From IMG/VR virus record IMGVR_UViG_3300045988_117710: 64,000 nucleotides of DNA; one strand, 5' to 3'. Numbering within the stretch: position 1 is the first letter of the stretch; every line of letters starts with the position of its first letter. The notes below the pieces were generated by a model. That model ran no database searches and was not told the origin of the DNA. It saw only the letters and a program-made list of their open reading frames with translations. Below, piece after piece: positions 2,679-26,873 of this stretch. Position numbers and translations under genes: made by a program. Source of the stretch: a virus.

Positions 2679-3875
2679 GTGAAAGAATTTAAAGATATGA
2701 TTATGAAGGAAGCAAAGGAAGAGATGTTAGCTTTACAACATCCTTATGTAGATTCATCTCATTTAATGTTAGCTTTACTTCGTTCTAGTGATTTCGGTGG
2801 TTCAAGAGAGTTTATGATGCGTCATGGTATTTCTTATGAGTTGTTCTATGATACTATAATAGAAGTAATTGGTAAGGGTACGGTAGAGGATAAGAATACT
2901 CCTTATACTCCTGCTCTTAAACAAGTATTGAGTGCTTATACAGGAATGGCAAAGAAGAGACAGAGTGATGATCCTTCGTTAATTATGTTATTATGTTTAC
3001 TTCAGTTCTATGAAGGTGTTGGTATTCGTTTATTGATGAATATCGGTGTTGATATAGATGATTTAATTGAGGACCTTGAAGAGTTATTGGATAATTCTTT
3101 AGATAAGTTACTTAAGAAGTATGGATGTCTTACTGATTTAAATAAAGAAGTTCGTGAGAATAACACAGTGGTTACTGGGTTGGATGAGCAATTACAACAA
3201 TTGTGTAAGTATCTTTTAAAGATTCAGAAACCTAATGTTATTGTTTTAGGTGAACCTGGTGTTGGTAAGACAGCTCTTGTTGAGAAGTTAGCTGTTGCTA
3301 TTAATGAGAAGAAAGTTCCTAAGTTTCTTCAGGATTTAAGAGTTATTCAATTATCTTTAGGTTCTGCAGTTGCTGGTACTAAGTATCGTGGTGAATTTGA
3401 AGAGAAGATTAATGGAATAATTGAAGCGATGACTAAGAAACGTAATGTTATTCTATTTATTGATGAGATTCATATGATGGTAGGTGCTGGTGGAGCCGAA
3501 GGTGCTATTGATGCTTCTAATCTATTTAAACCGGTATTAGCTCGTGGTAAGATTAGAATGATTGGTGCAACTACTAATACAGAGTATAAAGAGTTTGTAT
3601 GTTCTGATAAGGCATTTGCTAGACGTTTCAATACTATTGAGATTCTAGAAACTACTGAAGAAGAGACTATGGCAATTTTATCTAAAGCAAAGGTTAAGCT
3701 TGAGAAACATTATGAGATTAAGCTTACTCATAATGATTTGGTTAAGGTTTATAAGGAAGCTACTCATAGAAGTGGTAGAATGCCAGATGTTGCTTTAGAT
3801 GCTTTAGAGGAATATTGTGTTGACCTTTATTATAATAGAGAGTCAGAGAAGGAAACTGAAGAGGTGAGTGTTTAA
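2679..3875 (+). CDS. Clp-type AAA+ ATPase (Clp_N repeats plus single D1 nucleotide-binding domain)
   Basis: Clp N-domain repeats (HLMLALL, SLIMLLCLL); Walker A GEPGVGKTALVEKLA; Walker B ILFIDEIHMMVGAG; KYRGEFEEK and ARGKIRMIGATT match the ClpA/B/C D1 domain; no second AAA domain. Confidence 0.75.
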   Translation: MKEFKDMIMKEAKEEMLALQHPYVDSSHLMLALLRSSDFGGSREFMMRHGISYELFYDTIIEVIGKGTVEDKNTPYTPALKQVLSAYTGMAKKRQSDDPSLIMLLCLLQFYEGVGIRLLMNIGVDIDDLIEDLEELLDNSLDKLLKKYGCLTDLNKEVRENNTVVTGLDEQLQQLCKYLLKIQKPNVIVLGEPGVGKTALVEKLAVAINEKKVPKFLQDLRVIQLSLGSAVAGTKYRGEFEEKINGIIEAMTKKRNVILFIDEIHMMVGAGGAEGAIDASNLFKPVLARGKIRMIGATTNTEYKEFVCSDKAFARRFNTIEILETTEEETMAILSKAKVKLEKHYEIKLTHNDLVKVYKEATHRSGRMPDVALDALEEYCVDLYYNRESEKETEEVSV

Positions 3876-4525
3876 TGAGTGTTATTATTGCAAAGAAGAT
3901 TAAGAATGGTTTTGTTTTAGCAGGTGATTCTCAAGGTACTGTTGGTACTCATAGAACTACTGTTACTAAGATATTTAAAGCTCCTAAAGAGGAGAATGTA
4001 TTTATTGGTGTGGTTGGTAGATTACGTGATGCTAATATAGTTGCATCTGTAGATAGTATTTTAGATTCCAATGCTATTCGAAGAGGTAACTTGGACGCTA
4101 ATAGTTTAGTTTCTTATACTGTTCCTGAACTTCAGAAGTCTTTAAAGGAACAAGGTGCTTTATCTGTTGATGGTGGATTGCTTTGTTGGAATTCTGAAAT
4201 TATTATTGTTTATAAAGATAAGGCATTCTTAATTGATTCAGACTTTTGTGTTATTGAGATAGATGATTTTGCTGCAATTGGTGCTCCACAGGATTTTGCT
4301 TATGGTGCATATGCAATTCTTAAGAAGTTTAAATCTAAGTTACCTAAGTTGTCTGATTTTGATTTAGTCAAAGAGATTATGAAGATGACTATTGAAGAAA
4401 CTATTCATGTGTTCTATCCTATTTGGATGGTTGATACTAGTACAACTAATGCAGATTTCATAGAATTCAAGGGTTCAATTGTTGAGGAAAAGAAATCTAC
4501 AAAAGATAGTAAGGAAGAGGAATAA
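3875..4525 (+). CDS. hslV: HslV-like Ntn-hydrolase peptidase (proteasome beta-like)
   Basis: N-terminus [24 protein letters not shown] aligns with HslV [41 protein letters not shown] aligns with IAIGSGGPYAQAAARAL; Ser replaces Thr at the nucleophile position; start overlaps the ATPase stop (ATGA). Confidence 0.65.
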   Translation: [216 protein letters not shown]

Positions 4526-6171: not shown

Positions 6172-6186
6172 TTGAAAGGATTATTT

Positions 6187-6630
6187 ATGAAGATTATTCT
6201 AGATGAAGATGTTAAGGGTAAAGGTAAGAAAGGTCAGATGATAGAAGTTGCTGATGGTTATGGTTCTTTTCTTATCAGAAGTAAGAAGGCATCTTTAGCT
6301 ACTGAAGGTGTTATCAATAAGTGGAAGAGAATTCATGAAGAAGAAACTTTACAAGATAATTTGATTAGAAAAGAAGCAACTAATCTAAAGAATTTGATTG
6401 AGAAAGAAACATTTACTTTTAAGGTTAAAGCTGAAAATGGTAAGGTGTTTGGTTCTATTACAAGTTCTGATGTTGCAAAGAAACTTAATGAGAAGTATTC
6501 AAATCAAACTATTAAGATTGAGAAGAAGGATATAACTATTCCTAAGACTTCTACTTTAGGTGTTTATCAAGCCAAGGTAGTTCTTTACAAGGATATTGTA
6601 GCTGTGGCTTCTATTAATGTTTCTGAATAA
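6187..6630 (+). CDS. rplI: ribosomal protein bL9 homolog
   Basis: MKIILDEDVKGKGKKGQMIEVADGYGSFLI aligns with E. coli L9 [31 protein letters not shown]; length 147 aa; RBS AAAGGA 6 nt upstream of ATG 6187 (track ORF starts at TTG 6172). Confidence 0.8.
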   Translation: MKIILDEDVKGKGKKGQMIEVADGYGSFLIRSKKASLATEGVINKWKRIHEEETLQDNLIRKEATNLKNLIEKETFTFKVKAENGKVFGSITSSDVAKKLNEKYSNQTIKIEKKDITIPKTSTLGVYQAKVVLYKDIVAVASINVSE

Positions 6631-6957: not shown

Positions 6958-7225
6958 TGAGAAATGTCCTAACCCATTTGGTGTAGAAGGTATTTGTTAT
7001 TCATTTGATCGCTTTGGAGATAGAACTGGTTGTTTGGGGTGTCCTTTAGCAGATACTATTCCTGGTGGTGTATTTGATATGGGAGACCCTTTACCTGGTT
7101 TAACAAGGCAATTGGAAGAACAACATTTAATCAATCTAATTAAACTTGCAGGAAAGTCTGGAGATGAGTTGACTTTATCTTCTCATGACTGTATAATATT
7201 GACTAAACTTATAGGTGGTGATTAG
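6950..7225 (+). CDS. hypothetical protein
   Basis: ORF track; Cys/Gly-containing small protein. Confidence 0.4.
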   Translation: MDNEKCPNPFGVEGICYSFDRFGDRTGCLGCPLADTIPGGVFDMGDPLPGLTRQLEEQHLINLIKLAGKSGDELTLSSHDCIILTKLIGGD

Positions 7226-7517
7226 CTTGGAAGAATTTAAACCAAGAGATTTTTCAACTATTGCTCGTCAGATACAAGATGTTATTGAAAGAGATTGTAC
7301 TTTCAGTAGTTGCAGGAGACGAGAATTAATTAATGAAATTGATAGGTGTATCAAAGATAACTTTTATCGAGCTCCAGAATTAGCTTTCGAGAGTTGGAAT
7401 GATTTAGCAAATGTTCTTAATTCCTATTTAGTCCCAAGTAATTCTAGATGGGAGACAGAGATTATGTGTATCTTTGGTGATTTAGGACCTGTTGATGATT
7501 ATTGGGATGGTGATTAG
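7215..7517 (+). CDS. hypothetical protein
   Basis: ORF track. Confidence 0.4.
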   Translation: MVISLEEFKPRDFSTIARQIQDVIERDCTFSSCRRRELINEIDRCIKDNFYRAPELAFESWNDLANVLNSYLVPSNSRWETEIMCIFGDLGPVDDYWDGD

Positions 7518-7518
7518 T

Positions 7519-8349
7519 ATGGGAAAGGAAAAGAAGAATACTTTAGGAACAAGGATGAAGGAGTATGAAGCTGTTAGTAAGAATCATCTGATGAGAAGAA
7601 CTCCTGTTGTTATAAGATTGGATGGTAAAGCATTTCATACTTTTACTAGAGGTTTAAATAAACCTTTTGATTCTGATTTTGTTACTATGATGCAACAAAC
7701 TATGTTACATTTATGTGAGAATATTCAAGGATGTGTTTTAGGTTATACTCAATCTGATGAGATTACTTTAGTCCTTGTTGATTATCAGAATAGAGATTCT
7801 TGTGCTTGGTTTGATAATCAAGTTCAAAAGATTGCTAGTATTAGTGCTAGTATGGCTACTCTATACTTTAATAGAGAGTTGTCTGAAATGTTGAGAGATT
7901 TAGAAGAGGATTTGGCTGCTGCGGATTATAGTTTACCTCAAGCTCATATGTATGAAACTAATTCAAAGAAGTATGATAAGTGGTATGATAAAGAGTATAG
8001 AGCTGTGTTTGATTCTAGGGTGTTTAATTTACCTCAATATGAAGTTATTAATAATTTGATTTGGAGACAGCAAGATGCAACTAGAAATTCTATTAATAGT
8101 GTTGCTCAAAGTCTTTTCTCACATAAGGAACTTCAAGGTATTAGTAGTAAGGATCTTCAGAATAAGATGTTAACAGAGAGGGATGTCAATTGGAATGATT
8201 ATCCAACACATCTTAAACGTGGTTGTTGTGCGATTAAGGATTCTGAAGGTAAGTGGGTTTTAGATATCAATATTCCTATTTTTACTGAAGATAGAAATTA
8301 TATTGATAGGTTGGTCTTTTTAGAGGATGGTGAAGAGAATGCTATTTAA
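7519..8349 (+). CDS. Thg1-like protein (tRNA-His guanylyltransferase family 3'-5' nucleotidyltransferase)
   Basis: VVIRLDGKAFHTF matches Thg1 VVVRLDGRNFHRF; GYTQSDEITLVL matches AYGQSDEYSFVF; ASISASMATLYF matches ASQFASSYVFYW; start uncertain (7519 or 7555). Confidence 0.75.
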   Translation: MGKEKKNTLGTRMKEYEAVSKNHLMRRTPVVIRLDGKAFHTFTRGLNKPFDSDFVTMMQQTMLHLCENIQGCVLGYTQSDEITLVLVDYQNRDSCAWFDNQVQKIASISASMATLYFNRELSEMLRDLEEDLAAADYSLPQAHMYETNSKKYDKWYDKEYRAVFDSRVFNLPQYEVINNLIWRQQDATRNSINSVAQSLFSHKELQGISSKDLQNKMLTERDVNWNDYPTHLKRGCCAIKDSEGKWVLDINIPIFTEDRNYIDRLVFLEDGEENAI

Positions 8350-8629
8350 GATAGATTATTCTGTATGTGATTATGATTACAAGTTCAAGATTAAGGTTTC
8401 TAGACCATTATTAATGTCTAGAAGAAGATTAGAAAGAAAGTTTCAAAGTCTGTTACAACACTTTCCTAATTTTAGTGTTTACTGGGAAGATGAATGGACT
8501 TATATAATTAATCTTTATTTTGATGGTAAGGGTTGGGATAAGGATAAAGAGGGTAAATCTCATTATTCTAGTGTTTATTGTGATGGTAGTGTTGGTTATA
8601 TAAGTTTTAAGTGGACGGAGGATAGATAG
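8327..8629 (+). CDS. hypothetical protein
   Basis: ORF track; overlaps upstream gene end. Confidence 0.35.
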   Translation: MVKRMLFKIDYSVCDYDYKFKIKVSRPLLMSRRRLERKFQSLLQHFPNFSVYWEDEWTYIINLYFDGKGWDKDKEGKSHYSSVYCDGSVGYISFKWTEDR

Positions 8630-13045: not shown

Positions 13046-13252
13046 ATGGTTTCATTGAAGATTATTGTTCAAAACGGTAATGTTGATGCAGCACTTAGAA
13101 AGTTAAAAGCTTCTTTAGGAAACTCTGGTACTATTCAAGCTCTTAAGGAGAAAGAATACTACATTAAACCTGGTGAGAAGAGAAGACTTAAGAAAGAGCA
13201 AGGCATCAAGAACTGGAGAAAACAACAAAGAAAAATGAATAACTATAGATAA
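13046..13252 (+). CDS. rpsU: ribosomal protein bS21 homolog
   Basis: KIIVQNGNVDAALRKLKASL and EKEYYIKPGEKRRLKKEQ align with bS21 ([20 protein letters not shown] and RREFYEKPTTERKRAK); possible true start TTG 13055 with RBS AAAGGAG upstream. Confidence 0.75.
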   Translation: MVSLKIIVQNGNVDAALRKLKASLGNSGTIQALKEKEYYIKPGEKRRLKKEQGIKNWRKQQRKMNNYR

Positions 13253-13379
13253 TTTTAGAGGGTGATAAGTAAGGAAACAGAGAAGTTTAGTATCAATATG
13301 TTTTTATAACTAATGTTATTTGAATGTACCGATCGGCTTTTTGGTTTCCTTCTTTTTCATTATTGGAGGTTGTTATAGA

Positions 13380-13562
13380 ATGAAAAAGTTACGTAGAAGT
13401 ACTAAAGATTATTGTTTTATGGGAGTATGTGGTGGTTTAGCTGAGTATTTCGATATTGATTCTAGTATCGTTCGTCTTATTTGGTTAGCTGCTGTGTTAT
13501 TTTTTGGCTCTGGTATTTTATTATACTTGATTATGTGTTTAGTATTACCGAAGGAGGTGTAA
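13380..13562 (+). CDS. PspC-domain membrane protein
   Basis: [38 protein letters not shown] matches the PspC domain ([20 protein letters not shown]...GGSGILLYI); RBS GGAGG upstream of ATG 13380. Confidence 0.7.
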
Positions 13563-13564
13563 TT

Positions 13565-15796
13565 ATGAAGATACAAAAGAGAAGTGGAAAGATAGTTGAT
13601 TTTGATGAAGTTAAAATTGGTATTGTTTTAGATAAAGCTTTTTCTGACTTTCCAGATATTGAAGCCAAAGATGTGAAGAAAGCCAAGAGTGCTATTATAT
13701 CAGTTATTCGTGAGGAAGCTGCTTTACATCAAGATGATGAACTTTTCTCTGTTGAAGATTGTCAAGATTTAATTCAATCTACCATGCGTAAGTTAGGTTA
13801 TCGTAAGGTTGCTAATAAGTTTAAAGAGGTTCGTGAAGAGAGAGCTTTCAATAGAGAACTTACTGTAGTTTTTGATGCATTGTCTAATAAGGATACTGAA
13901 GAGAAGACAGATAATGCTAATGTTAATGGATATACTCCATCTGGTAGACATCTTCATGTTTCTGAAGAAGTTATTAAGCTTCATTCTATGAGAGAAGTGT
14001 TTAGTAAGGATGTTGTGAAGGCCGTAAAGCGTGGAGATTTCTATATTCATGACAGAGGGTGGACTGGTACTGGTTCTTTAACTTGTTGTCAAATTGACTT
14101 AGAAAAGCTTCTTAAAGGTGGTTTTTCAACTGGTCATGGTTGGTTACGTGAACCATCTAATATTAAGACTGCAATGTTACAAGCTGCAATAGCAATTCAG
14201 TCTAATCAAAATGACCAACATGGTGGTCAATCTGTTTATAATTTTGATTTATATATGGCTCCTTATCTTATGAAGTCTTATAGAAAACATATTTTAGACC
14301 AATTATATTCTTTTGTTAGATATAGTGGTTATGATTTAGAGTTAGATGAAGAATATATTGAACAATATATTAAGGATCCAAATACTATTACTGATTTTAC
14401 TGTAGATGCTGGTGCTAAAGCTCTTTATGAGTGGACTCCAGAAACTAAGAAGAATTTATTTATGAATGTAGATCTTATGGATACTTATGTTAAGATTTGT
14501 ACTGAAGCTCATAGAAAGACTGTTGATGATACAAATCAAGCTGCAGAGTCTATTGTTCACAATTTAAACTCTATGGCATCTCGTGCTGGTAGTCAAGTTC
14601 CATTTAGTTCTATTAACTTTGGTTTAGGTTCTGATGAGGCAAGTAGACAAGTTTCTATTTCTTTACTTAAGGCACAAATGGATGGTTTAGGTAATCATGA
14701 GACACCTATATTCCCAATTCTTATTTATGAGTTAAAGAAAGGTATTAATTTTAATCCTGAAGATCCTAACTATGATATATTCAGATTAGCAATGGAATGT
14801 TCTAGTAAGAGATTATTCCCAACTTATGCTTTTATGGATGCTTCATTTAATTTACCTTTATTCAATCAAGATCCTGTAACATTTAAGAATATTGTTGCTT
14901 ATATGGGTTGTAGAACTCGTTTAGGAACTAATTGTAATGGTAAAGAGGGTTCTGGTTCTAGAGGTAATTTATCATTTAATACTATTAATTTACCTTTATT
15001 AGCATTAGATTCTAAAGGTAATATAGATAAGTTTTATAAGTTGTTACAAAACACTTTAGAGTTATGTGATAAAGCTCTTTTAGAAAGATTTGAATTACAA
15101 TGTCAATTCCAAAAGAGAAATTTCCCAAGTCTTATGGGACAAGGTATTTGGATGGATTCTGATGATTTAGATGATTTTGATGAAGTTCGTTCTGTCCTTA
15201 AGCATGGAAGTTTAGGTATTGGATTTGTTGGTTTAGCTGAATGTCTTAAGGTTCTTACAGGTAAACATCATGGTGAATCTAAAGAAGCTGATAAGTTAGG
15301 TTATGAGATTGTTAAGTATATGAAAGATTATACTGATAGACGTACTAAAGAGATGAAACTTAACTATGCTACTTTAGCAACTCCTGCTGAAACTTTATGT
15401 AAGACAGCATTAGAGCAAACAAGAAGAATCTATGGAGTTATTGAAGGTGTTACTGATAGAGCTTACTTCACTAATTCAATGCATGTTCCTGTTTATTATA
15501 ACATTCATGTAGATGAGAAGATGAAGATTGAAGGAAAGTATCACAAGTTATGTAATGGTGGTCATATTGCATATGTAGAAGTAGATGGAGATATTAGTCA
15601 AAATCTAGATGCTTTCGAAGAGATTCTACATATTATGTCTGATAATGATGTTGGATATGGTGCAATCAATATTCCAATTATAGAGTGTCCTATATGTCAT
15701 CATAGTTTTAGAGGTAGTTCAGATATACACATTTGTCCTAACTGTTCTTACGATGAATTAGTAGGAATAGATATAGATTGTGATTGTGGAAAGTAG
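13565..15796 (+). CDS. nrdD: anaerobic ribonucleoside-triphosphate reductase NrdD (class III), lacking the C-terminal glycyl-radical segment
   Basis: N-terminal ATP cone (MKIQKRSGKIVDFDEV); MGCRTRLG active-site region; C-terminal Zn ribbon CPICHH...CPNCS; no RxxGY motif before the stop at 15796. Confidence 0.85.
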   Translation: MKIQKRSGKIVDFDEVKIGIVLDKAFSDFPDIEAKDVKKAKSAIISVIREEAALHQDDELFSVEDCQDLIQSTMRKLGYRKVANKFKEVREERAFNRELTVVFDALSNKDTEEKTDNANVNGYTPSGRHLHVSEEVIKLHSMREVFSKDVVKAVKRGDFYIHDRGWTGTGSLTCCQIDLEKLLKGGFSTGHGWLREPSNIKTAMLQAAIAIQSNQNDQHGGQSVYNFDLYMAPYLMKSYRKHILDQLYSFVRYSGYDLELDEEYIEQYIKDPNTITDFTVDAGAKALYEWTPETKKNLFMNVDLMDTYVKICTEAHRKTVDDTNQAAESIVHNLNSMASRAGSQVPFSSINFGLGSDEASRQVSISLLKAQMDGLGNHETPIFPILIYELKKGINFNPEDPNYDIFRLAMECSSKRLFPTYAFMDASFNLPLFNQDPVTFKNIVAYMGCRTRLGTNCNGKEGSGSRGNLSFNTINLPLLALDSKGNIDKFYKLLQNTLELCDKALLERFELQCQFQKRNFPSLMGQGIWMDSDDLDDFDEVRSVLKHGSLGIGFVGLAECLKVLTGKHHGESKEADKLGYEIVKYMKDYTDRRTKEMKLNYATLATPAETLCKTALEQTRRIYGVIEGVTDRAYFTNSMHVPVYYNIHVDEKMKIEGKYHKLCNGGHIAYVEVDGDISQNLDAFEEILHIMSDNDVGYGAINIPIIECPICHHSFRGSSDIHICPNCSYDELVGIDIDCDCGK

Positions 15797-18382: not shown

Positions 18383-18768
18383 GGGGATGTTCTGGTTTCG
18401 ACAGTAGGAATGTCATTATGATTGCATGCAGTAGGTTGCTACTTTAAAGGACAAAAACAATAAATGCAAATTTCAAAAACTTTATAGCAAATGTTAAAGC
18501 TTCTTTAGCAAATATGTTTGCTGCTCCAGTTGTAGCTTAGTATAAAACAACTTATCTATAAGAAGATTTACATATGGATGTTCTTATAGATATCGTATAA
18601 ACATATGTAAGACATTGAGGATCCAATAGTCAATGTTTTAATTTATTGGGTAGGTTAAACTTATTGTAGGTGATTAACCTGTAAGATAATAATTACAATC
18701 AAGCATGTGAATGAAATTGTAGGTTGAGTTTTTATTGGACACGAGTTCAATTCTCGTCATCTCCACCA
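18383..18768 (+). ncRNA. ssrA: tmRNA (SsrA), one-piece
   Basis: 5' end GGGGATGTTCTGGTTTCGACAGTAGG matches the tmRNA consensus GGGGCTGATTCTGGATTCGAC; 3' end GGACACGAGTTCAATTCTCGTCATCTCCACCA gives T-arm plus acceptor with a G3-U70 wobble (Ala identity element); internal tag frame GCA AAT GTT AAA GCT TCT TTA GCA AAT ATG TTT GCT GCT CCA GTT GTA GCT TAG. Confidence 0.8.
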
Positions 18769-18769
18769 T

Positions 18770-18843
18770 GCGGGTATCGTTCAGTGGTAGGACCTCTGCC
18801 TTCCAAGCAGACGACGCCGGTTCGAATCCGGCTACCCGCTCCA
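18770..18843 (+). tRNA. tRNA-Gly (anticodon UCC)
   Basis: Manual cloverleaf; anticodon loop CTTCCAA; acceptor GCGGGTA/TACCCGC; encoded CCA. Confidence 0.8.
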
Positions 18844-18847
18844 TTAT

Positions 18848-18921
18848 GGGAGTATAGCCAAGTGGTAAGGCAATGGACTGCAACTCCATGATCGTAGGTT
18901 CAAATCCTACTACTCCCTCCA
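18848..18921 (+). tRNA. tRNA-Cys (anticodon GCA)
   Basis: Manual cloverleaf; loop ACTGCAA; acceptor GGGAGTA/TACTCCC; CCA encoded. Confidence 0.8.
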
Positions 18922-19070
18922 AGGGAAGTACTGTTCTGAAGAACAATTTATATATCTATATAATTCTAAATCCCTGTCATAGAATTATATTAATCGATTA
19001 ACACTGCAGGGTTAATTAGTATGGACAATGCTTTCGAGGTTTTTCATTTTTTACCTCCTTTCTCTTATTT

Positions 19071-19145
19071 GGTCTGTTAGTCTATCGGCTACGACGCTGC
19101 CCTGTCACGGCAGAGGGACGGGGTCAACTCCCGTACAGACCGCCA
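19071..19145 (+). tRNA. tRNA-Asp (anticodon GUC)
   Basis: Manual cloverleaf; loop CTGTCAC; acceptor GGTCTGT/ACAGACC; atypical T-loop GTCAACT. Confidence 0.65.
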
Positions 19146-19150
19146 TTATA

Positions 19151-19223
19151 GGGAAGTAGTTCAATGGTAGAACAGTGGTCTCCAAAACCACGGACGTGGG
19201 TTCGATTCCTACCTTCCCTGCCA
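19151..19223 (+). tRNA. tRNA-Trp (anticodon CCA)
   Basis: Manual cloverleaf; loop CTCCAAA; acceptor GGGAAGT/CTTCCCT. Confidence 0.75.
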
Positions 19224-19234
19224 TTGTGTAATTT

Positions 19235-19287
19235 AAATCAATAAGTTCTCTGAATTTATTGATTTTTTATTTTGGTTGTCGTATAAT
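19235..19287 (+). promoter_or_regulatory. terminator hairpin after tRNA-Trp followed by TTGATT, 17 nt, TATAAT promoter (TCGTATAAT)
   Basis: AAATCAATAA loop TTATTGATTT plus T-run (19235-19270); TTGATT 19259-19264; TCGTATAAT 19279-19287. Confidence 0.5.
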
Positions 19288-19303
19288 GTTTGTAAGGAAG
19301 GTG

Positions 19304-20158
19304 ATGATTGTGGGTAGACCTGCAAAGAAAGAACAACTTATTCAACGTTGTGAAGAACTTAATGTTTTCTATAGTGAGAAGATGACAATTAAGGAATTAG
19401 AAGCACTTATTGCTGATAAGGAAAGAGGAATGGTAGCTCCTGTTGTGATTACTGAAGATATGATGACCCCTTATGAGTATTTTCAAAATGTTAAGGATTC
19501 TATTAAGTCTATGAATGACGATGATCTTACTAAGATGTATACTGCTGCAAGTACTTTAATGGAGAAGTATCAAGTATTTGGTCAAGAGAAGGCAGAGAAG
19601 AGATTAGCATTTCATATCAAGACTATTCTTAAGGAACATGATTTATTACAATTGGGAATTAATAAGTTTGTTTATAAAGATGATATTACTAATTACATAG
19701 ATGTTATTAGTAAGAAGCCAGTTAAAATTATTGAGATGAAGAATTTCCCTAGAGAGATTCCTGATGATATGATTGATGTTGTTACGAAGACTAAAGGTAT
19801 CTTTGATGAGTATTATGTTTTATTTACTGATTACTCTGAAGGTGAATTAGTTAAGGAAGTTGAGAAGGAAAGAGATCCAATTTTATTTGGAGGTTTCTGT
19901 ACTAAGAATAGAGATATTGTTTCTGATAGATTCTATTACTTAGGTGATTGGGTTGATGAGTATTGTGATTTAACTTTAGATAAGCTTATTAAGGAGACTT
20001 CTAAAGATATTGTTAAGACTATTTCTATTCCTACTAATAAGGATAAGTTGATTTCTCAACTTAATGCTTACGAAGAGAAAGGTGATAGGTATATAGTAAA
20101 TACACCTAAGAAAGAACATTTCTTCAGTAAGATTAAGAGAGCTTTTAAGGTTAAGTAG
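19304..20158 (+). CDS. hypothetical protein
   Basis: ORF track (19259) trimmed to ATG 19304 with RBS AAGGAAGG; downstream of promoter motif 19279. Confidence 0.4.
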   Translation: MIVGRPAKKEQLIQRCEELNVFYSEKMTIKELEALIADKERGMVAPVVITEDMMTPYEYFQNVKDSIKSMNDDDLTKMYTAASTLMEKYQVFGQEKAEKRLAFHIKTILKEHDLLQLGINKFVYKDDITNYIDVISKKPVKIIEMKNFPREIPDDMIDVVTKTKGIFDEYYVLFTDYSEGELVKEVEKERDPILFGGFCTKNRDIVSDRFYYLGDWVDEYCDLTLDKLIKETSKDIVKTISIPTNKDKLISQLNAYEEKGDRYIVNTPKKEHFFSKIKRAFKVK

Positions 20159-20159
20159 T

Positions 20160-20723
20160 ATGGCTGTTCCTAGAGATATTGATTTAACTCGTCATCTAGA
20201 TTTTAATAAGGATGAAGTAATAGCCAAGTCTGTTAAGCTTCCAAAGGAAGTTAAGGATACTTCTTATAAGAGATATAATGAGTATGAGAATACTTCCTTT
20301 AGAAGTACTACTAGTTTAACTACTGCACCTGGTTTAGATGATTGGGGTTTAGGTTCTTTTTCAACTAATTTCTCTAGTACAAGTTCTGATTCTTTTAAAC
20401 CTTTTTCTTTAGTTCCTACTATTAAGGTAGAGGAGAGGGTTTGTTGGAGAAAGCTTTATAAGGATCCTAATGTTTTTGAACCTAGGTATACTGCAGATGA
20501 GTGGGTTGAGGTATTTAAGAATAGAAACTTCCCAATGGGTAGTAGGGAAGATAGGATGAAAGTATTTGCAGAAGTTTTGAAGGATAAGTATGATCCTTGG
20601 AAGAATAGATGTGAGAGATGTGGGAAGAAGTTCAATCCTAATAATTGTTTTTCTCATTTCTATGGTTTATGTCAAGATTGTAATATTATTCTAGAAAATC
20701 AAGTTTATTCTGTGAATCTTTAA
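20160..20723 (+). CDS. hypothetical protein with C-terminal Cys cluster
   Basis: ORF track; CERCGKKFNPNNCFSHFYGLCQDCN. Confidence 0.4.
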   Translation: MAVPRDIDLTRHLDFNKDEVIAKSVKLPKEVKDTSYKRYNEYENTSFRSTTSLTTAPGLDDWGLGSFSTNFSSTSSDSFKPFSLVPTIKVEERVCWRKLYKDPNVFEPRYTADEWVEVFKNRNFPMGSREDRMKVFAEVLKDKYDPWKNRCERCGKKFNPNNCFSHFYGLCQDCNIILENQVYSVNL

Positions 20724-20734
20724 GAGGTGATATT

Positions 20735-21025
20735 GTGAAGGATTATCTAGATATAGTTAAGAGATGTAAGGAACAGAATATAGATATTGATGGTTGTCAT
20801 ATTTATATTTATCCTAATAATTTGGATGGGGAGTTTTGTCATAAGGGGACTTTATCACAGGATGGTGAATGGCTTTGTATTCCTTTGAAAAAGTTTGATG
20901 AGTCGTTCGAAATGGATTATTTCGAACCAGTGTGTTACCAAGTTAAAACGTCTTTTAAAACGTATTTAAAGGGTGATTCTCTTTGGTATCTTGTAGAGTG
21001 TTTTGTACTTTATGATAATAATTAA
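20735..21025 (+). CDS. hypothetical protein
   Basis: ORF track; GTG start with RBS AAGAGGTGA. Confidence 0.35.
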   Translation: MKDYLDIVKRCKEQNIDIDGCHIYIYPNNLDGEFCHKGTLSQDGEWLCIPLKKFDESFEMDYFEPVCYQVKTSFKTYLKGDSLWYLVECFVLYDNN

Positions 21026-21030
21026 TTGAG

Positions 21031-21312
21031 GTGATTATAGTGTTGAGTGATACAAATGTTAACTTTATATGTTTTGCAAGTAGGAAGTCTATAAGGAAAT
21101 GGGTAGTTTCTGAAGTTAGATATGATTATGAATGGGATGGATATTGTGTTCATAAGTTAGGTGAGAATGAGTATTGTGAATTTGGAACTCCTTTTGCTGC
21201 TTATAATCATGCAAAGAATATTTCTAATAAGTATAAGAAGAAATACTCTGATGCAGTTGTAATTGTTAAGGAAGTTGGAGTAACAGCGGAGGATCTTGTT
21301 TCGAATGGATAA
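21031..21312 (+). CDS. hypothetical protein
   Basis: ORF track. Confidence 0.35.
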   Translation: MIIVLSDTNVNFICFASRKSIRKWVVSEVRYDYEWDGYCVHKLGENEYCEFGTPFAAYNHAKNISNKYKKKYSDAVVIVKEVGVTAEDLVSNG

Positions 21313-21778
21313 GCCAATTATATTTCTAGATTTTGATGGTGTTGTTGAAACTATTTATTGGGAGAAAGATAAGGACGGTTCTTGGTCTTGGAATGTTCAT
21401 AAGTCTGGGAGAGAAGAACTGAATAATAAACAAGCGATTGGCTGGCTTAATGAGCTTTATAAGAAAGTTCCTTATGACATAGTGGTTTCTAGTACTTGGA
21501 GGATTGGAATGTCTGTTGAAGAGCTTCAAACTCTGATTACTAATTCTGGATTTAATAAAGAAATTAGGGTTTTAGATAAGACTCCTATTCTTTATCAACA
21601 GAGGGGTGTTGAGATTCAGAGATGGATAGATGATAATGATTTTAAAGGGAAGTTCATCATTATAGATGATGATTCTGATATGTGTCATTTACTTCCATTA
21701 CTTGTAAGATGTGATTGTCAGCTTGGTTTTACTATTTATGATTATAATAAAGCATTAAGATTGTTAGATGAATCTTAA
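21296..21778 (+). CDS. HAD-like phosphatase (putative nucleotidase)
   Basis: HAD motifs IIFLDFDGVVET (DxDGV), VVSSTWR, FIIIDDDSD. Confidence 0.5.
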   Translation: MFRMDKPIIFLDFDGVVETIYWEKDKDGSWSWNVHKSGREELNNKQAIGWLNELYKKVPYDIVVSSTWRIGMSVEELQTLITNSGFNKEIRVLDKTPILYQQRGVEIQRWIDDNDFKGKFIIIDDDSDMCHLLPLLVRCDCQLGFTIYDYNKALRLLDES

Positions 21779-21791
21779 GAAAGGATTGTTT

Positions 21792-22019
21792 ATGGATAAG
21801 GTTAATGTTAGAGAGTTGTTTATACTTGCAATGTTTCTTTTGACTACTGTTATTTCTATTGGTCTTTATAATCAGAATATTGGATTAAGAAAGACTATTG
21901 AAGAGAAGGATAAAGAGATTGAAGATTTAACTTTTGATAATTCTCGTTGTAATATGGCTTATGATGAGTTTTATGAATTATTTATGGATTGTGTTTCTTA
22001 TGAGAAGTGTACAGAATAG
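21792..22019 (+). CDS. small membrane protein
   Basis: ORF track (21768) trimmed to ATG 21792 with RBS AAGGA; hydrophobic segment LFILAMFLLTTVISIGLY. Confidence 0.4.
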   Translation: MDKVNVRELFILAMFLLTTVISIGLYNQNIGLRKTIEEKDKEIEDLTFDNSRCNMAYDEFYELFMDCVSYEKCTE

Positions 22020-22020
22020 T

Positions 22021-22029
22021 TCGTATAAT
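22021..22029 (+). promoter_or_regulatory. phage promoter-like motif TCGTATAAT
   Basis: Exact 9-mer 18 nt upstream of ORF 22047. Confidence 0.45.
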
Positions 22030-22046
22030 ATTTATGAGGTGATAAT

Positions 22047-22298
22047 ATGAATGTAAATATTCAATGTGATAAGTGTAAGAATGTATATCCTGGTGATGAT
22101 ATTCTAATGGTTAACAATTTTGGTACTGCAGAACTTGTTGGTGCTATTTGTACTAGTTGTTATAATTCTATTGGTAATTGTGAAGCAGAGTGTTGTGATT
22201 GTTGTGAATCTGATGTTTGTGATGGGCAATTGACTATTGATGATTTCATTGACGATAATGATATTGAGGTTCTAACAGATGTTGACTCTACCTATTAA
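22047..22298 (+). CDS. hypothetical Cys-rich protein
   Basis: ORF track; CDKCKN...CTSCYNSIGNCEAECCDCCESDVCDG; downstream of promoter motif 22021. Confidence 0.4.
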   Translation: MNVNIQCDKCKNVYPGDDILMVNNFGTAELVGAICTSCYNSIGNCEAECCDCCESDVCDGQLTIDDFIDDNDIEVLTDVDSTY

Positions 22299-22617
22299 GA
22301 AGAAATGGTTTGATATGATTCTTTCTGGAGAGAAGAAAGAAGAGTATCGTGAAATTAAACCTTATTATGATTCTAGATTTATAATATTTAAGTCCCAAAG
22401 TGCAAACAATATATTTCAAAGTGCAAATTTATTAACTGGTGAAGTTAATACTTATGAACATTGTCAAGATATTATTTTTAGGAATGGTTATTCTGGTTCT
22501 AGTCCTTGTATTAAGTGTAAGGTTAGTCTATCTCGAGGAGAAGGTAAACCTGAGTGGGGTGCTGAACCTGGTGTTGAGTATTATATCCTTAATATCTTAA
22601 GTGTTGAGAAGTTATAG
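22279..22617 (+). CDS. hypothetical protein, possible ASCH/PUA-like domain
   Basis: KKKWFDMILSGEKKEEYR resembles the ASCH N-terminal motif; weak. Confidence 0.3.
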   Translation: MLTLPIKKKWFDMILSGEKKEEYREIKPYYDSRFIIFKSQSANNIFQSANLLTGEVNTYEHCQDIIFRNGYSGSSPCIKCKVSLSRGEGKPEWGAEPGVEYYILNILSVEKL

Positions 22618-22626
22618 AGGTGTTTT

Positions 22627-22845
22627 ATGAAGTTAGATGAAAATACTTTAATTAGATATACTGTTGAAGATAAGAATGGTGAGATTGTTCAGACGACTTT
22701 TACTTTACAACAAGTTGAAGGTAGTGTTCCTAATTTCTATCAAGCTTTTAAAGATGCTTTAAGAGATTTAGAAGATTTTGATGTTGATAATTCTGAAATT
22801 ATTTCAAGAGAGATTGTGAGTGATTCTGATGAAGAAGATTTATAG
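22627..22845 (+). CDS. hypothetical protein
   Basis: ORF track. Confidence 0.35.
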   Translation: MKLDENTLIRYTVEDKNGEIVQTTFTLQQVEGSVPNFYQAFKDALRDLEDFDVDNSEIISREIVSDSDEEDL

Positions 22846-23281
22846 TAAGTATGACAATATAGGAGATTTAGTAGAAGCTCTTAAGGAAGTTCAAGTTGGT
22901 TCTAAATTCAAGTTCTGGCATGAGAAGAAGAGATATACTTGTATGGGTAGAAGTGAGAACTTTATTATCATTTCTAAACCATTTAATCTGAAAGAAGATT
23001 GTTGTATGTATTCTATTCTTGATCTTACTCAGATGAGATGCAATAGAGATAATCTAGTGTTTGGGATTTATGATTATTCTAATGAAGAAGATTGTAAGGA
23101 TGCATTAGAAGCCCTAGAAAGATCTCTAGTACCATGGGAAGAGAGATTTATTAAGTGTGAACCTGATGAAGATGGAAGAGTAAAACTGATTCCTAAATAT
23201 CCAGAAGCAGACTTTACTTTAGAGATTTCACAACGTGGTGGTGCAAATATTGTTGATGCAATTGAAGAAGTTTATATATAA
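22820..23281 (+). CDS. hypothetical protein
   Basis: ORF track. Confidence 0.4.
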   Translation: MILMKKIYSKYDNIGDLVEALKEVQVGSKFKFWHEKKRYTCMGRSENFIIISKPFNLKEDCCMYSILDLTQMRCNRDNLVFGIYDYSNEEDCKDALEALERSLVPWEERFIKCEPDEDGRVKLIPKYPEADFTLEISQRGGANIVDAIEEVYI

Positions 23282-23287
23282 AATTAG

Positions 23288-23316
23288 TTGACTTTTTATT
23301 TCCTTTGTGTTATATT
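23288..23316 (+). promoter_or_regulatory. sigma70-like promoter (TTGACT, 17 nt, TATATT)
   Basis: TTGACT at 23288-23293, 17-nt spacer, TATATT at 23311-23316. Confidence 0.45.
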
Positions 23317-23349
23317 AAGTTTAGTATATGAGGCATATGAAGTTCCTTG

Positions 23350-23445
23350 GTTAGGTTGTTAACCCGGTAGTCGTAGGTTCGAGTCCTACTCCATACTTCC
23401 GAAAGGTCGGTGGATAGCTCAGTGGATAGAGCACCGTTTACTTCT
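23350..23445 (+). other. two adjacent tRNA-like fragments (3'-type fragment, then 5'-type fragment)
   Basis: 23374-23398 has T-arm GTAGG-TTCGAGT-CCTAC plus acceptor-like TCCATAC but no D-arm upstream; 23407-23436 has acceptor-like CGGTGGA, TA, D-arm GCTC-AGTGGATA-GAGC, then no anticodon or T-arm; acceptor strands only 5/7 complementary. Confidence 0.3.
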
Positions 23446-23519
23446 CGCCTTAATATATTTATAGAACTGAAATATGGACTGTAAAGACTTTTCTTTATAT
23501 ATTATGTTGAGGAGTTTTT

Positions 23520-23972
23520 ATGGAACAGTTTAAAGTTTGTAGTAAGTGCAAAAGAGAATTATCATTAGATTGTTTTAGGTGGAAAAATAAATCTAAGGGT
23601 ATAAGACATTATCGATGCAGAGAGTGTCAAAAGGAATCTGATAAGAAGCTTTATTTGGAAAGTGAGTCAAGACGTCGTACTGTAAGGGGTATAGCAGATT
23701 CACAGAAGCAAAGAAATCTTCAGATTGTAGATGAAGCAAAGAAGTGTGGTTGTTGCAAGTGTGGTGAGATGAGACCATTTGTGTTAGATTTTCATCATGT
23801 TGATCCAACTACAAAGGATAGTGAGATAGCCCATTTGTTAAAGTCTGCTTCAGTTGAGCATTTATTAGATGAGTTATCCAAGTGTGTTGTCTTTTGTGCT
23901 AATTGTCATAGGGAATATCATTATCTTAATAAGACTTTTGGTATTACTATTGATGAGTATCTAAAGAAATAG
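23520..23972 (+). CDS. HNH endonuclease
   Basis: HNH motif region FVLDFHHVDPTTKDS...CVVFCANCHREYH plus N-terminal Zn-ribbon CSKCKRE...CRECQ. Confidence 0.7.
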   Translation: MEQFKVCSKCKRELSLDCFRWKNKSKGIRHYRCRECQKESDKKLYLESESRRRTVRGIADSQKQRNLQIVDEAKKCGCCKCGEMRPFVLDFHHVDPTTKDSEIAHLLKSASVEHLLDELSKCVVFCANCHREYHYLNKTFGITIDEYLKK

Positions 23973-23975
23973 TAT

Positions 23976-24051
23976 GGGCCGATAGCTCAGTTGGTAGAGC
24001 ACGACACTGAAAATGTCGGTGTCGGTGGTTCAATCCCACCTCGGCCCACCA
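23976..24051 (+). tRNA. tRNA-Phe (anticodon GAA)
   Basis: Manual cloverleaf; loop ACTGAAA; acceptor GGGCCGA/TCGGCCC; CCA encoded. Confidence 0.8.
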
Positions 24052-24056
24052 TATAT

Positions 24057-24132
24057 CGCGGAGTGGAGAAGTGGTTATCTCGTCTGGCTCATAACCAGAA
24101 GAGCGTGGGTTCAAATCCCACTTCCGCAACCA
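24057..24132 (+). tRNA. tRNA-Met (anticodon CAU), initiator-like C1-A72 mismatch
   Basis: Manual cloverleaf; loop CTCATAA; acceptor CGCGGAG/TTCCGCA leaves C1 opposite A72, as in bacterial tRNA-fMet; anticodon stem has only two G-C pairs. Confidence 0.65.
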
Positions 24133-24218
24133 TTTTGTTTGTGAAAGCAAACAATCCTGAAACGCCTAACTTAGATCGGAGATCAAGTATTTAGGTAAGT
24201 TGAGAAAGGAGGAAGATT

Positions 24219-24503
24219 ATGGCGAAACCTGTAAATGCGGGTAAACCATGGAGTGTTGAAGATTTAGTTATTCTTGCTAATACAGCACCAACTAAACACA
24301 ATATTTCTTTTCTAGCAAAGTCATTAGGTAGAACTGAGGATGCTGTTTATAGTCAGTATTATTTATTGTTCTGTGCACCTAGTTACTTGAAACAAGCTGA
24401 TGGAAGTATTCTAGAACAACACAAGAGAATTCTTCAAGCAAAGAAGATAGCTGGTTTACACGTTTCTATAACACCTAAAGCAGATTCTTATAAAGTTTCT
24501 TAA
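24219..24503 (+). CDS. Myb/SANT-like HTH DNA-binding protein
   Basis: KPWSVEDLVILANTAPTKHNISFLAKSLGRTEDAVYSQY resembles the Myb/SANT repeat; RBS AAAGGAGG. Confidence 0.4.
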   Translation: MAKPVNAGKPWSVEDLVILANTAPTKHNISFLAKSLGRTEDAVYSQYYLLFCAPSYLKQADGSILEQHKRILQAKKIAGLHVSITPKADSYKVS

Positions 24504-24547
24504 TTTGTTATAGATTATAGGAAAGTCATTAAGACTTTCTGATATGT

Positions 24548-24634
24548 GCCTAGTTGTGATAATTGGTAGTCGGGCGGTCTTGAAAACCGTTGGTCGGAAA
24601 CGGCTTGGGGGTTCGAGTCCCTCACTAGGCGCCA
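24548..24634 (+). tRNA. tRNA-Ser (anticodon UGA), class II
   Basis: Manual fold; loop CTTGAAA; long variable arm; acceptor GCCTAGT/ACTAGGC; CCA encoded. Confidence 0.7.
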
Positions 24635-24660
24635 TTTAATTAGTTCATAGAGGTGAAGAT

Positions 24661-25230
24661 ATGAATAAGACTATAAGTCATTTTAAGACAATTACTAAAC
24701 ATAAGTTTTATGTTATGAAGTTTTGTTTCAAGTGTCATTTATTTAAGAGAGGTTTATTACATGATCTTTCTAAATATAGTCCAATTGAGTTCTGTACTAG
24801 TGTGAAGTATTATACTGGTAATAGAAGTCCTATTGATAATGAGAAAGATGTTAAGGGTTATTCATTAGCTTGGCAACATCATAAAGGTCATAATCCTCAT
24901 CATTGGGAGTATTGGATTGACAATGTTGGTACAAGAACAAACAATGCAGGAAGAATTCCTTATAAGTATGTTGTAGAAATGATTTGTGATTGGCTTGCTG
25001 CTGGTATAGTTTATTCTAAAAAGAATCCTGATTATAATGAACCATATGATGTTCCTGTGAAACATTATAATGCCCATACTCATGAAAGAATATTTCATGA
25101 GGATACACAAGAGTTAATTGAGTTCTTTCTAGATAGAATTGCTAGAGATGGAATTAATGATTTTTGTAGAATTGCAAGAGAAAAGAAACTTTCTATAATT
25201 AAGAATTACCTAAATAAGGAGGTTTCATAA
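24661..25230 (+). CDS. putative HD-domain phosphohydrolase
   Basis: H...HD (KCHLFKRGLLHDLSKY) then His-rich WQHHKGHNPHHWEYW; weak family call. Confidence 0.35.
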   Translation: MNKTISHFKTITKHKFYVMKFCFKCHLFKRGLLHDLSKYSPIEFCTSVKYYTGNRSPIDNEKDVKGYSLAWQHHKGHNPHHWEYWIDNVGTRTNNAGRIPYKYVVEMICDWLAAGIVYSKKNPDYNEPYDVPVKHYNAHTHERIFHEDTQELIEFFLDRIARDGINDFCRIAREKKLSIIKNYLNKEVS

Positions 25231-25232
25231 TT

Positions 25233-25331
25233 ATGGGTTTCTGGTTAATTATATTTGTTTTATTGGATTGGATAAGTTTAGAGTCAGCTGTTGGTCTTTA
25301 TCTTATCTATTTAATTTTTGTAAAGGATTAA
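25233..25331 (+). CDS. small hydrophobic peptide (32 aa)
   Basis: Not in ORF track (short); RBS AAGGAGG 9 nt upstream of ATG 25233; MGFWLIIFVLLDWISLESAVGLYLIYLIFVKD. Confidence 0.35.
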   Translation: MGFWLIIFVLLDWISLESAVGLYLIYLIFVKD

Positions 25332-25347
25332 TATATTGGAGGTATTT

Positions 25348-25521
25348 ATGAGTAAGCACAGTGGATTAGGATATCCATCAAAGAACTTAGTTAAAGAGAT
25401 AAGATATTCTAGAAAAGCTGCTGTTGCTTTCGTAAATAATCATAGGATAAGATATTTTATTTATACTAGATTATCCAAGTATTATGAACACAAACATTAT
25501 AAAGAAATTATGTCTTCGTAG
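25348..25521 (+). CDS. hypothetical small basic protein
   Basis: ORF track (25336) trimmed to ATG 25348 with RBS GGAGG; 3' end overlaps tRNA-Lys by about 10 nt. Confidence 0.3.
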   Translation: MSKHSGLGYPSKNLVKEIRYSRKAAVAFVNNHRIRYFIYTRLSKYYEHKHYKEIMSS

Positions 25522-25587
25522 CTCAGTTGGTAGAGCAACTGACTCTTAATCAGTGGGTCCAGAGTTCGAGTCTCTGCGAGGACACCA
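25512..25587 (+). tRNA. tRNA-Lys (anticodon CUU)
   Basis: Manual cloverleaf; loop CTCTTAA; acceptor GTCTTCG/CGAGGAC (one G-U); CCA encoded. Confidence 0.7.
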
Positions 25588-25590
25588 TAT

Positions 25591-25682
25591 GTCCACTTAC
25601 TCAAGTTGGTGAAGAGGACAGATTGCTAATCTGTTAGATCAGTTTTACTGGTGCGAAGGTTCGAGTCCTTCAGTGGACGCCA
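25591..25682 (+). tRNA. tRNA-Ser (anticodon GCU), class II
   Basis: Manual fold; loop TTGCTAA; long variable arm; acceptor GTCCACT/AGTGGAC. Confidence 0.7.
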
Positions 25683-25700
25683 TTTTGTGTTTATGGCACT

Positions 25701-25776
25701 GCTTCTTTAGCTCAGTCGGTAGAGCGCACGGCTGTTAACCGTTAGGTCGTAGGTTCGAGTCCTACAAGAAGCGCCA
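25701..25776 (+). tRNA. tRNA-Asn (anticodon GUU)
   Basis: Manual cloverleaf; loop CTGTTAA; acceptor GCTTCTT/AAGAAGC. Confidence 0.7.
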
Positions 25777-25786
25777 TTAGTTTTTT

Positions 25787-25870
25787 GGGCAGTTAGCGAA
25801 GCGGTCAAACGCGGCAGACTGTAAATCTGTTCCTTCGGGTTCCGTGGTTCGAATCCACGACTGCCCACCA
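25787..25870 (+). tRNA. tRNA-Tyr (anticodon GUA), class II
   Basis: Manual fold; loop CTGTAAA; long variable arm TCCTTCGGGTTCCG; acceptor GGGCAGT/ACTGCCC. Confidence 0.7.
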
Positions 25871-25873
25871 TTT

Positions 25874-25950
25874 GTCCTTTTAGCTCAGCTGGATAGAGCA
25901 TCGCCCTTCTAAGGCGAGTGTCCTAGGTTCGAATCCTAGAGGGGACGCCA
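25874..25950 (+). tRNA. tRNA-Arg (anticodon UCU)
   Basis: Manual cloverleaf; loop CTTCTAA; acceptor GTCCTTT/AGGGGAC with two G-U pairs. Confidence 0.65.
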
Positions 25951-25956
25951 TAATAT

Positions 25957-26029
25957 CACACTGTATCCAAGTGGTTAAGGAGCCAGATATAGAACTGGTA
26001 ATTCAATGGTTCGAATCCATTCGGTGTGA
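25957..26029 (+). tRNA. atypical tRNA-like gene with noncanonical anticodon arm (identity undetermined; possible pseudogene)
   Basis: Good acceptor (CACACTG/CGGTGTG), D-arm and T-arm AATGG-TTCGAAT-CCATT, but anticodon arm CCAG-ATATAGAA-CTGG is one nt short of 5+7+5 (4-bp stem with 8-nt loop, or 6-nt loop with an A-A mismatch); no encoded CCA. Confidence 0.4.
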
Positions 26030-26076
26030 GTCACTTTCATCTATTTGAAGGCGCAATAGAATAGGTGAAACACTAT

Positions 26077-26151
26077 TGCCCGGTAGCCAAGTGGTAAGGC
26101 ACAAGACTTTGACTCTTGCATGCGCTAGTTCGAATCTAGCCCGGGCAGCCA
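26077..26151 (+). tRNA. tRNA-Gln (anticodon UUG)
   Basis: Manual cloverleaf; loop CTTTGAC; acceptor TGCCCGG/CCGGGCA; CCA encoded. Confidence 0.7.
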
Positions 26152-26182
26152 TTTAATATTTACCGAAAGAAGGTATTGCTAT

Positions 26183-26797: not shown

Positions 26798-26873
26798 GGG
26801 GGATTAGCTCAGCTGGGAGAGCAACTGCCTTGCACGCAGTAGGTCATCGGTTCGAACCCGATATCCTCCACCA
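26798..26873 (+). tRNA. tRNA-Ala (anticodon UGC)
   Basis: Manual cloverleaf; loop CTTGCAC; acceptor GGGGATT/ATCCTCC with G3-U70 (Ala identity); CCA encoded. Confidence 0.8.

Follow-up and report, generated by a model that had tools for sequence, protein, structure and literature searches.

The 64-kb stretch of viral DNA analyzed here (hereafter, the window) contains at positions 7519–8349, on the plus strand, an uninterrupted coding sequence of 276 amino acids that begins with an ATG at 7519, ends with a TAA at 8347–8349, and is predicted to encode a Thg1-like protein (TLP). The gene calls of public assemblies place the start at an in-frame ATG at 7495, which yields a 284-aa form; this form is found on ENA scaffold_33, and no record was found that holds the 276-aa form as an exact product. 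The TLP gene lies within a tightly packed run of small co-directional ORFs, as there are no terminator-like sites between positions 5800 and 10200. Its start is located 1 nt past the stop of the upstream ORF (7215–7517), and its 3′ end overlaps by 23 nt with the downstream ORF (8327–8629). A possible sigma-70-type promoter (TTGACT-17-TATAAT, 11/12 matches; 7169–7197, plus strand) precedes both ORF 7215–7517 and the TLP gene, and is considered a candidate only because the number of promoter-like sites does not exceed that expected from shuffled sequence.

Over the 1 kb that was compared, the window shares 100% identity with scaffold_33 of the ENA assembly ERZ28576703 (HMPC12-1_SAMN00034694, Human Microbiome Project), a contig of 179,133 bp of which it covers roughly positions 52–116 kb. 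Together with ~9 kb upstream and ~6 kb downstream, ~79 kb of the ~179-kb genome were inspected. The GC content of the window is 32%, and nearly all listed long ORFs and every annotated gene are located on the plus strand. A low-GC Firmicute is the probable host. In its structural genes, the human-associated phage resembles T4, with a Gp23-type capsid, a tail sheath and a baseplate, and further encodes NrdD, a dUTPase, and the ribosomal proteins bL9 (6172–6630, plus strand; both Pfam domains) and bS21 (13055–13252, plus strand; PF01165 on the identical ENA gene call). Genes for S-adenosylmethionine synthetase and RecA are found directly upstream of the window (L165). A TelA gene at 1084–1830 precedes two adjacent genes (2679–4525, plus strand) that encode a ClpA-like AAA+ ATPase (Clp_N plus AAA) and a proteasome/HslV-like subunit. 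The stop codons of 81 predicted ORFs are skewed (TAG 40, TAA 36, TGA 4); there is no sign of recoding, as the ORFs of the window read normally with the standard bacterial code.

The original prediction had identified the product of the TLP gene as a Thg1-like 3′-5′ nucleotidyltransferase from three sequence blocks, and this assignment is borne out by profile and structure searches. The Pfam family PF04446 (Thg1) matches the protein with 114 bits, where the cut-off is 29.2 (E = 5.9e-33), in an alignment that spans profile positions 2–130 of 130. The matches to PHROG 4717, 'tRNA-His guanylyltransferase' (E = 4.2e-88), and to the crystallised TLP from Bacillus thuringiensis (BtTLP; PDB code 4kgk; E = 4.5e-64) likewise place the similarity far past chance. 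The three blocks that align with Thg1/TLP are present as VVIRLDGKAFHTF (residues 30–42, nt 7606–7644), GYTQSDEITLVL (residues 75–86, nt 7741–7776) and ASISASMATLYF (residues 105–116, nt 7831–7866). Judged by its sequence and predicted fold, the product is unambiguously a TLP.

By sequence, the protein is of the bacterial/archaeal TLP type and not of the eukaryotic Thg1 type; eukaryotic Thg1 chains match it with E-values of 8.5e-09 to 6e-07. The eukaryotic enzymes (human, 3OTB; C. albicans, 3WBZ) have the palm fold, the three carboxylates and the two-step chemistry in common with the window TLP, but share ~20% identity with it and differ in the HINNLYN sequence that reads the GUG anticodon. HINNLYN is a eukaryote-specific Thg1 motif, the His of which stacks on anticodon base G36 (PMC6471195). 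In the alignment to 3otb and 3wbz, the segment that faces the W-R-Q-x-D-C-HINNLYN motif comprises residues 183–196 (RQQDATRNSINSVA; 8065–8106, plus strand), and the HINNLYN-aligned stretch reads D-A-T-R-N-S-I-N-S-V, with T188 at the position of the His. The motif is thus not conserved in the window TLP, nor is it conserved in other TLPs. Because the protein lacks HINNLYN, non-templated addition of G-1 to a tRNA-His with A73 is not expected. BtTLP (4KGK/4KGM) is 43–47% identical to the window TLP over the full length, contains the same catalytic and nucleotide-binding residues, and is the best structural match to its model. The two proteins differ in a 7-residue insert near the C-terminus that is found in BtTLP only, in a 30-residue helical-hairpin insertion (residues 128–157) that is found in the window TLP only, and at M158 of BtTLP, which corresponds to S194. 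The window TLP is, in addition, virus-encoded and its activity is predicted.

The active site of the window TLP is, as far as alignments tell, intact, with all catalytic residues present. The catalytic carboxylates, on which the original prediction had been made to depend, are D35, D80 and E81; they correspond to D29/D76/E77 of hTHG1 and D30/D75/E76 of BtTLP, and are invariant among 37 homologues. The first metal-binding carboxylate, D35 (codon at 7621–7623, plus strand), is located inside the VVIRLDGKAFHTF block, and the Ser-Asp-Glu catalytic hairpin S79-D80-E81 (codons at 7753–7761, plus strand; S75-D76-E77 in hTHG1, S74-D75-E76 in BtTLP) inside the GYTQSDEITLVL block. The roles of the active-site residues in Thg1/TLP enzymes have been described by Hyde et al. 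2013 (PMC3701042). Residues for 5′-end activation and NTP binding were sought as the Lys of K-P-x-D, the Ser before the Asp-Glu pair, Arg27/28, Lys95/96 and Arg130/131/133, and E17, R33, K48, S79, K104, R167 and R183 of the window TLP align with such residues. In the alignment to BtTLP, residues E12/R28/D30/S74-D75-E76/R131/R147 correspond to E17/R33/D35/S79-D80-E81/R167/R183. Across both a 28-sequence alignment and that of the 37 homologues, E17, S79, K104, R167 and R183 never vary, and R33 is kept in at least 90% of sequences. The three carboxylates and K48 likewise never vary among the 28 sequences; K48 does not appear in the conserved columns listed for the 37-homologue set.

An AlphaFold2 model of the window TLP, built on a 37-sequence alignment, has a mean pLDDT of 85.8 and a pTM of 0.85, and adopts a predicted polymerase-like palm plus fingers fold. 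A Foldseek search with the model retrieves 4KGM/4KGK at the top, followed only by Thg1/TLP chains down to E = 6e-12. All 32 matches at E ≤ 1e-3 are Thg1/TLP chains, with target-normalised TM values of up to 0.89, and the palm domains of Cas10 and GGDEF proteins enter the list only at E > 0.02.

The insertion relative to BtTLP (residues 128–157; 7900–7989, plus strand) is located between palm and fingers. In the model it forms a helical hairpin that prolongs the long helix 102–134 and returns via helices 139–143 and 145–158, with pLDDT values of 94–97 over residues 111–160. The insertion occurs in nearly all close homologues with variable sequence and length, and is absent from BtTLP and from P0119; many distant homologues match the window TLP in two stretches that break at this site. 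On alignment evidence it is a clade-specific feature, and the window TLP belongs to a gut-metagenome clade with a variable insertion. A new specificity provided by this element, with the enzyme acting on another RNA with a paired 5′ end, such as the phage tmRNA (18383–18768), or on a non-tRNA substrate, would be consistent with the high confidence at which the 30 residues are modelled and with their variability among homologues. Within the wider family, DdiTLP4 has non-tRNA roles. A review of Thg1/TLP enzymes lists DdiTLP4 apart from the tRNA-His and 5′-editing paralogues (PMC6471195). Since the sequence of the insertion is poorly conserved, it is more readily viewed as a surface element that is tolerated than as a module for specific recognition, and we consider it unlikely that the window TLP has been redirected to such substrates.

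Homologues of the window TLP are widespread. In total, 5,845 cluster representatives match at E ≤ 1e-3, 1,402 of them at E ≤ 1e-30, and at least 587 IMG/VR loci encode a relative. Homologues are present in 163 GenBank phage records, including Bacillus, Caulobacter, Mycobacterium, Erwinia, Vibrio and Lak phages, and most are annotated as tRNA-His guanylyltransferase; the best identity to any phage record in the GenBank collection searched is at most 51%, and no GenBank phage matched the region by megablast. TLP phages also infect the alpha-proteobacteria Caulobacter, Brevundimonas, Sinorhizobium and Agrobacterium; some alpha-proteobacteria do not use G-1 at all (PMC6471195), and this host range favours end repair as the function. 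An identical protein is deposited in nr as 'MAG TPA: tRNAHis guanylyltransferase [Caudoviricetes sp.]', and copies with 95–100% identity are located on many independent metagenome contigs of 180–189 kb. The closest TLP locus in IMG/VR (L001) encodes a protein of 77% identity and has few genes in common with the window. The DUF5662 gene of the window (24661–25230) is promiscuous, and its copy on the closest contig is ~90 kb away from the TLP gene with no tRNAs nearby; ORF 26900–27337 has only two distant matches in IMG/VR.

The closest cellular homologues belong to Lachnospiraceae, Ruminococcus and Oscillospiraceae genomes, and the cellular relatives are mostly gut Clostridia. This distribution, together with the variable position of the gene among related phages, as seen from the few genes that L001 and the window have in common, would fit a passenger gene that was acquired horizontally from gut Clostridia and has no important role in infection. 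A dispensable passenger is highly improbable in view of the intact active site, the near-identical copies across many samples, and the retention of the gene in hundreds of large phages.

A tmRNA and 23 tRNA genes with interspersed small ORFs form an array (18383–29774, plus strand) that lies 10 kb downstream of the TLP gene and on which ARAGORN and Rfam agree; the estimate of at least 22 tRNAs in the original prediction was thus sound. The tRNAs are potential phage-encoded substrates of the enzyme. They cover 19 amino acids, and His alone is missing. The reported lack of a tRNA-His in the 64-kb window was reproduced with ARAGORN, with Rfam and with a permissive Rfam scan (E ≤ 0.05) that yields no extra tRNA, and no tRNAs were found in the flanks of 9 kb upstream and 6 kb downstream. 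From this lack it had been argued that the enzyme serves general 5′-end repair rather than the addition of G-1 to tRNA-His. The preference for repair is plausible, given the TLP type of the protein, the properties of BtTLP and the gene neighbourhoods described below, but the argument itself is weak because the absence covers ~79 of ~179 kb and the tRNA-His of the host is an equally possible substrate.

Maintenance of tRNA-His identity would consist in adding or restoring G-1 opposite C73, on the host tRNA-His or on a phage tRNA-His encoded outside the window, for charging by HisRS. This is the founding function of the Thg1 family, and BtTLP performs templated -1 addition and rescues a yeast thg1 deletion (PMC3061083, PMC6471195). 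In addition, His is the sole amino acid without a phage tRNA, yet it is as frequent in the phage proteome (1.59% of residues) as Cys (1.67%) and Trp (1.27%), for which phage tRNAs exist. We regard a role in tRNA-His identity as possible but doubtful: the protein is TLP-type and devoid of the anticodon-reading motif, no tRNA-His is encoded in the window and its flanks (~79 of ~179 kb), and most bacteria encode G-1 in the genome and retain it during RNase P processing (PMC6471195).

The 23 phage tRNAs are separated by spacers of 1–5 nt. Such close packing would be compatible with a TLP that matures or edits the 5′ ends of the phage's own tRNAs, in the manner of DdiTLP3 on mitochondrial tRNAs with encoded 5′ mismatches, and so would the TLP genes embedded in the tRNA arrays of some relatives and the two internal acceptor-stem mismatches, at positions 4–5, in the tRNA-His of the related loci L008 and L048. 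However, CCA is encoded in all 22 canonical tRNAs of the window, and their acceptor stems are paired (Watson-Crick or G-U) at positions 1–3, where the only mismatch is the normal C1xA72 of the initiator tRNA. The phage tRNAs therefore need no 5′ editing, and this candidate function was rejected. Known 5′ editing, moreover, concerns positions 1–3 and not 4–5 (PMC6471195). Maturation of the phage tRNAs, one of the roles put forward in the original prediction, is thus very unlikely.

The tmRNA of the array (18383–18768, plus strand; 98 bits) has an unusual tag, ANFKNFIANVKASLANMFAAPVVA, and ends 1 nt before a tRNA-Gly gene. The related loci L008 and L168 likewise have a tmRNA in their tRNA arrays.

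We further analyzed the gene neighbourhoods of related TLPs by clustering the ORFs within 4 kb of the TLP gene in 153 loci, 79 viral and 74 from genome assemblies. Pfam matches within this distance reveal Pnkp (kinase plus HAD_PNKP) in 37 of the 153 loci, a CCA-adding-type nucleotidyltransferase in 18, RlaP in 11, an RNA ligase in 9, and a ligase-like protein, with weak matches, in 10; an RNA ligase or ligase-like gene is thus present in 19 loci. At least one of these genes occurs in 52 of the 153 loci, equivalent to 21 of 71 TLP groups at 70% identity, that is, in about a third of the loci only, many of them related to each other. In L004, L005, L006 and L027, the genes are arranged co-directionally as Rnl-RlaP-Pnkp-TLP, with the end of Pnkp directly before TLP. 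In L008, L012, L017 and L071, the TLP gene starts within ~100 nt of tRNA genes, and that of L008 is located inside a 25-tRNA array that also contains a tmRNA. In the 40-kb contexts of the phages Fnu1 and Bc431v3, the TLP gene lies among hypothetical genes, and Fnu1 has a tRNA-His.

The TLP gene therefore lies in or beside a phage RNA-repair cassette (T4-type Pnkp plus Rnl; RlaP; CCA-adding) in 52 of the 153 loci, whereas the partner genes are absent from the window, where Pfam and tblastn searches over the 64 kb detected no Pnkp, RNA ligase, RlaP or CCA-adding enzyme. The sole match in the window related to RNA repair is a HAD_SAK_2 protein ('Swiss army knife' RNA-repair HAD domain; 21296–21778, plus strand; E = 1.4e-20) that is encoded inside the tRNA array. 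The association with repair genes is new support for a function in repair. It agrees with, and extends, a prediction from 2010 that Thg1 works with a polynucleotide kinase (PMC2904730). That TLP genes lie close to Pnkp, Rnl and CCA-adding genes is indicative of general end repair, and in this respect weighs against an enzyme dedicated to tRNA-His.

The tRNA-His genes recovered from TLP phages carry G-1 and A73 in Fnu1, G-1 and C73 in L008, and T-1 and U73 in L048, the latter two being TLP-encoding IMG/VR phages. The tRNA-His gene of L008 (9517–9591) is found ~400 nt upstream of TLP and has mismatches at 4:69 and 5:68 (T.T and C.T); that of L048 (13713–13786) has mismatches at the same positions (T.T and T.T). 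The proximity of tRNA-His and TLP in L008, and the T at -1 in L048, which implies that G-1 is not encoded there, are in line with a function in tRNA-His identity. Taken together, the three genes are heterogeneous and reveal no consistent need for G-1 addition; no conclusion on G-1 is drawn from them, because just three were recovered and they disagree.

We propose, with moderate confidence, that the window TLP is a template-dependent 3′-5′ polymerase that restores 5′ nucleotides of tRNA acceptor stems as part of a tRNA-maintenance toolkit of the phage. Its activity, its substrates and its role during infection are inferred from the family, the intact active site, the fold, the conservation and the genomic association in relatives. 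The enzyme would activate the 5′-monophosphate of a 5′-shortened tRNA with ATP or GTP, by analogy with BtTLP, and would then add the missing nucleotides singly, with the 3′ strand of the acceptor stem as the template and independently of the anticodon. The basis for template-dependent, anticodon-independent repair of 5′-truncated tRNAs is provided by BtTLP and MaTLP (PMC3061083, PMC4820378). BtTLP prefers 5′-truncated tRNAs 5–160-fold over -1 addition, and non-His tRNAs are also among its substrates (PMC3061083). The proposed function in 5′-end repair is thus strengthened by the TLP-type sequence, by the biochemistry of BtTLP, and by the neighbourhoods with RNA-repair genes; the literature searched contained no activity data for any phage TLP. 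In the phage, the enzyme would most likely serve in tRNA 5′-end repair or quality control, such that phage and/or host tRNAs stay usable during infection, as the 5′-end equivalent of the repair enzymes (Pnkp, RNA ligase, CCA-adding enzyme) found in many large phages.

To our knowledge, no nuclease that shortens tRNA 5′ ends has been described as a phage defence, and the damage that the TLP would repair is therefore hypothetical. In a more specific version of the proposal, the phage would draw on the tRNA-His of the host, serve the other 19 amino acids with tRNAs of its own, and deploy the TLP, with its clade-specific helical-hairpin arm, as a dedicated means of putting back G-1 or further 5′ acceptor nucleotides after their removal by a hypothetical host nuclease that attacks tRNA 5′ ends; this version is very unlikely. 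If true, it would represent a new kind of anti-phage tRNA damage together with its repair.

The TLP family and the identical protein were already known from the PHROGs catalogue and from the nr annotation, and the repair hypothesis has been in print since 2010. Whether a phage Thg1 serves tRNA-His maturation or RNA repair against host defence was asked in that year for Pseudomonas phage 201phi2-1 (PMC2904730), in 2013 for Bc431v3, and again in 2021 for jumbo phages (PMC7824862). The catalogued phage TLPs of PHROG 4717 (among them Bacillus phage Bc431v3 gp143, Fusobacterium phage Fnu1 ORF146, Pseudomonas phage 201phi2-1, and phage CBB gp152) resemble the window TLP in that they belong to the same family, are encoded by large tRNA-rich phages, carry the same annotation and pose the same question. 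The window gene itself adds little to this picture, and the neighbourhood statistics and the variable helical insertion are incremental. Reverse (3′-5′) polymerases are rare enzymes, and phages with a TLP beside Pnkp, RNA ligase and CCA-adding genes constitute a tractable setting for the study of 5′-end tRNA damage in infected cells.

Some further features were observed in the tRNA array and elsewhere in the window. An aberrant tRNA at 25956–26030 (plus strand; 44 bits with Rfam) has an 8-nt anticodon loop, AUAUAGAA, with an anticodon given as 'atag' (Tyr|Leu) by ARAGORN, which also draws its acceptor stem with 8 bp and its D stem with 3 bp; no other tRNA of the array lacks an encoded CCA. Both a frameshift-suppressor-like tRNA and a decaying gene are conceivable. 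A disguised tRNA-His was considered and rejected, as the gene has no GUG anticodon, its discriminator is G73, and its D-arm is like that of the neighbouring tRNA-Gln. Also inside the array, positions 23350–23457 (plus strand) give a sub-threshold match to the Y RNA-like YrlA family, scoring 35 bits where the gathering score is 69 (the E-value, 6.8e-4, refers to the whole window). The segment contains a permuted tRNA-like module composed of a T-arm (GUAGG/UUCGAGU/CCUAC), a stem that resembles an acceptor stem and is capped by a CC-GAAA-GG hairpin, and a D-arm (GCUC/AGUGGAUA/GAGC). The window showed no sign of a Ro/TROVE gene, and none of seven related tRNA-array loci contains a YrlA-like RNA at the Rfam gathering score. 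The array further holds a transposase-like ORF (19259–20158, plus strand; PHROG 10081, E = 7e-67) and an HNH endonuclease ORF (23520–23972, plus strand), which suggests mobile-element traffic in this region. Finally, positions 53180–54496 (plus strand) encode a protein of 438 aa that contains a PARP catalytic domain (E = 1e-21). Its orthologue in the IMG/VR phage L001, otherwise poorly related to the window phage, is 77% identical and is located at 13327–14601 of that locus, 2.5 kb downstream of the TLP orthologue.
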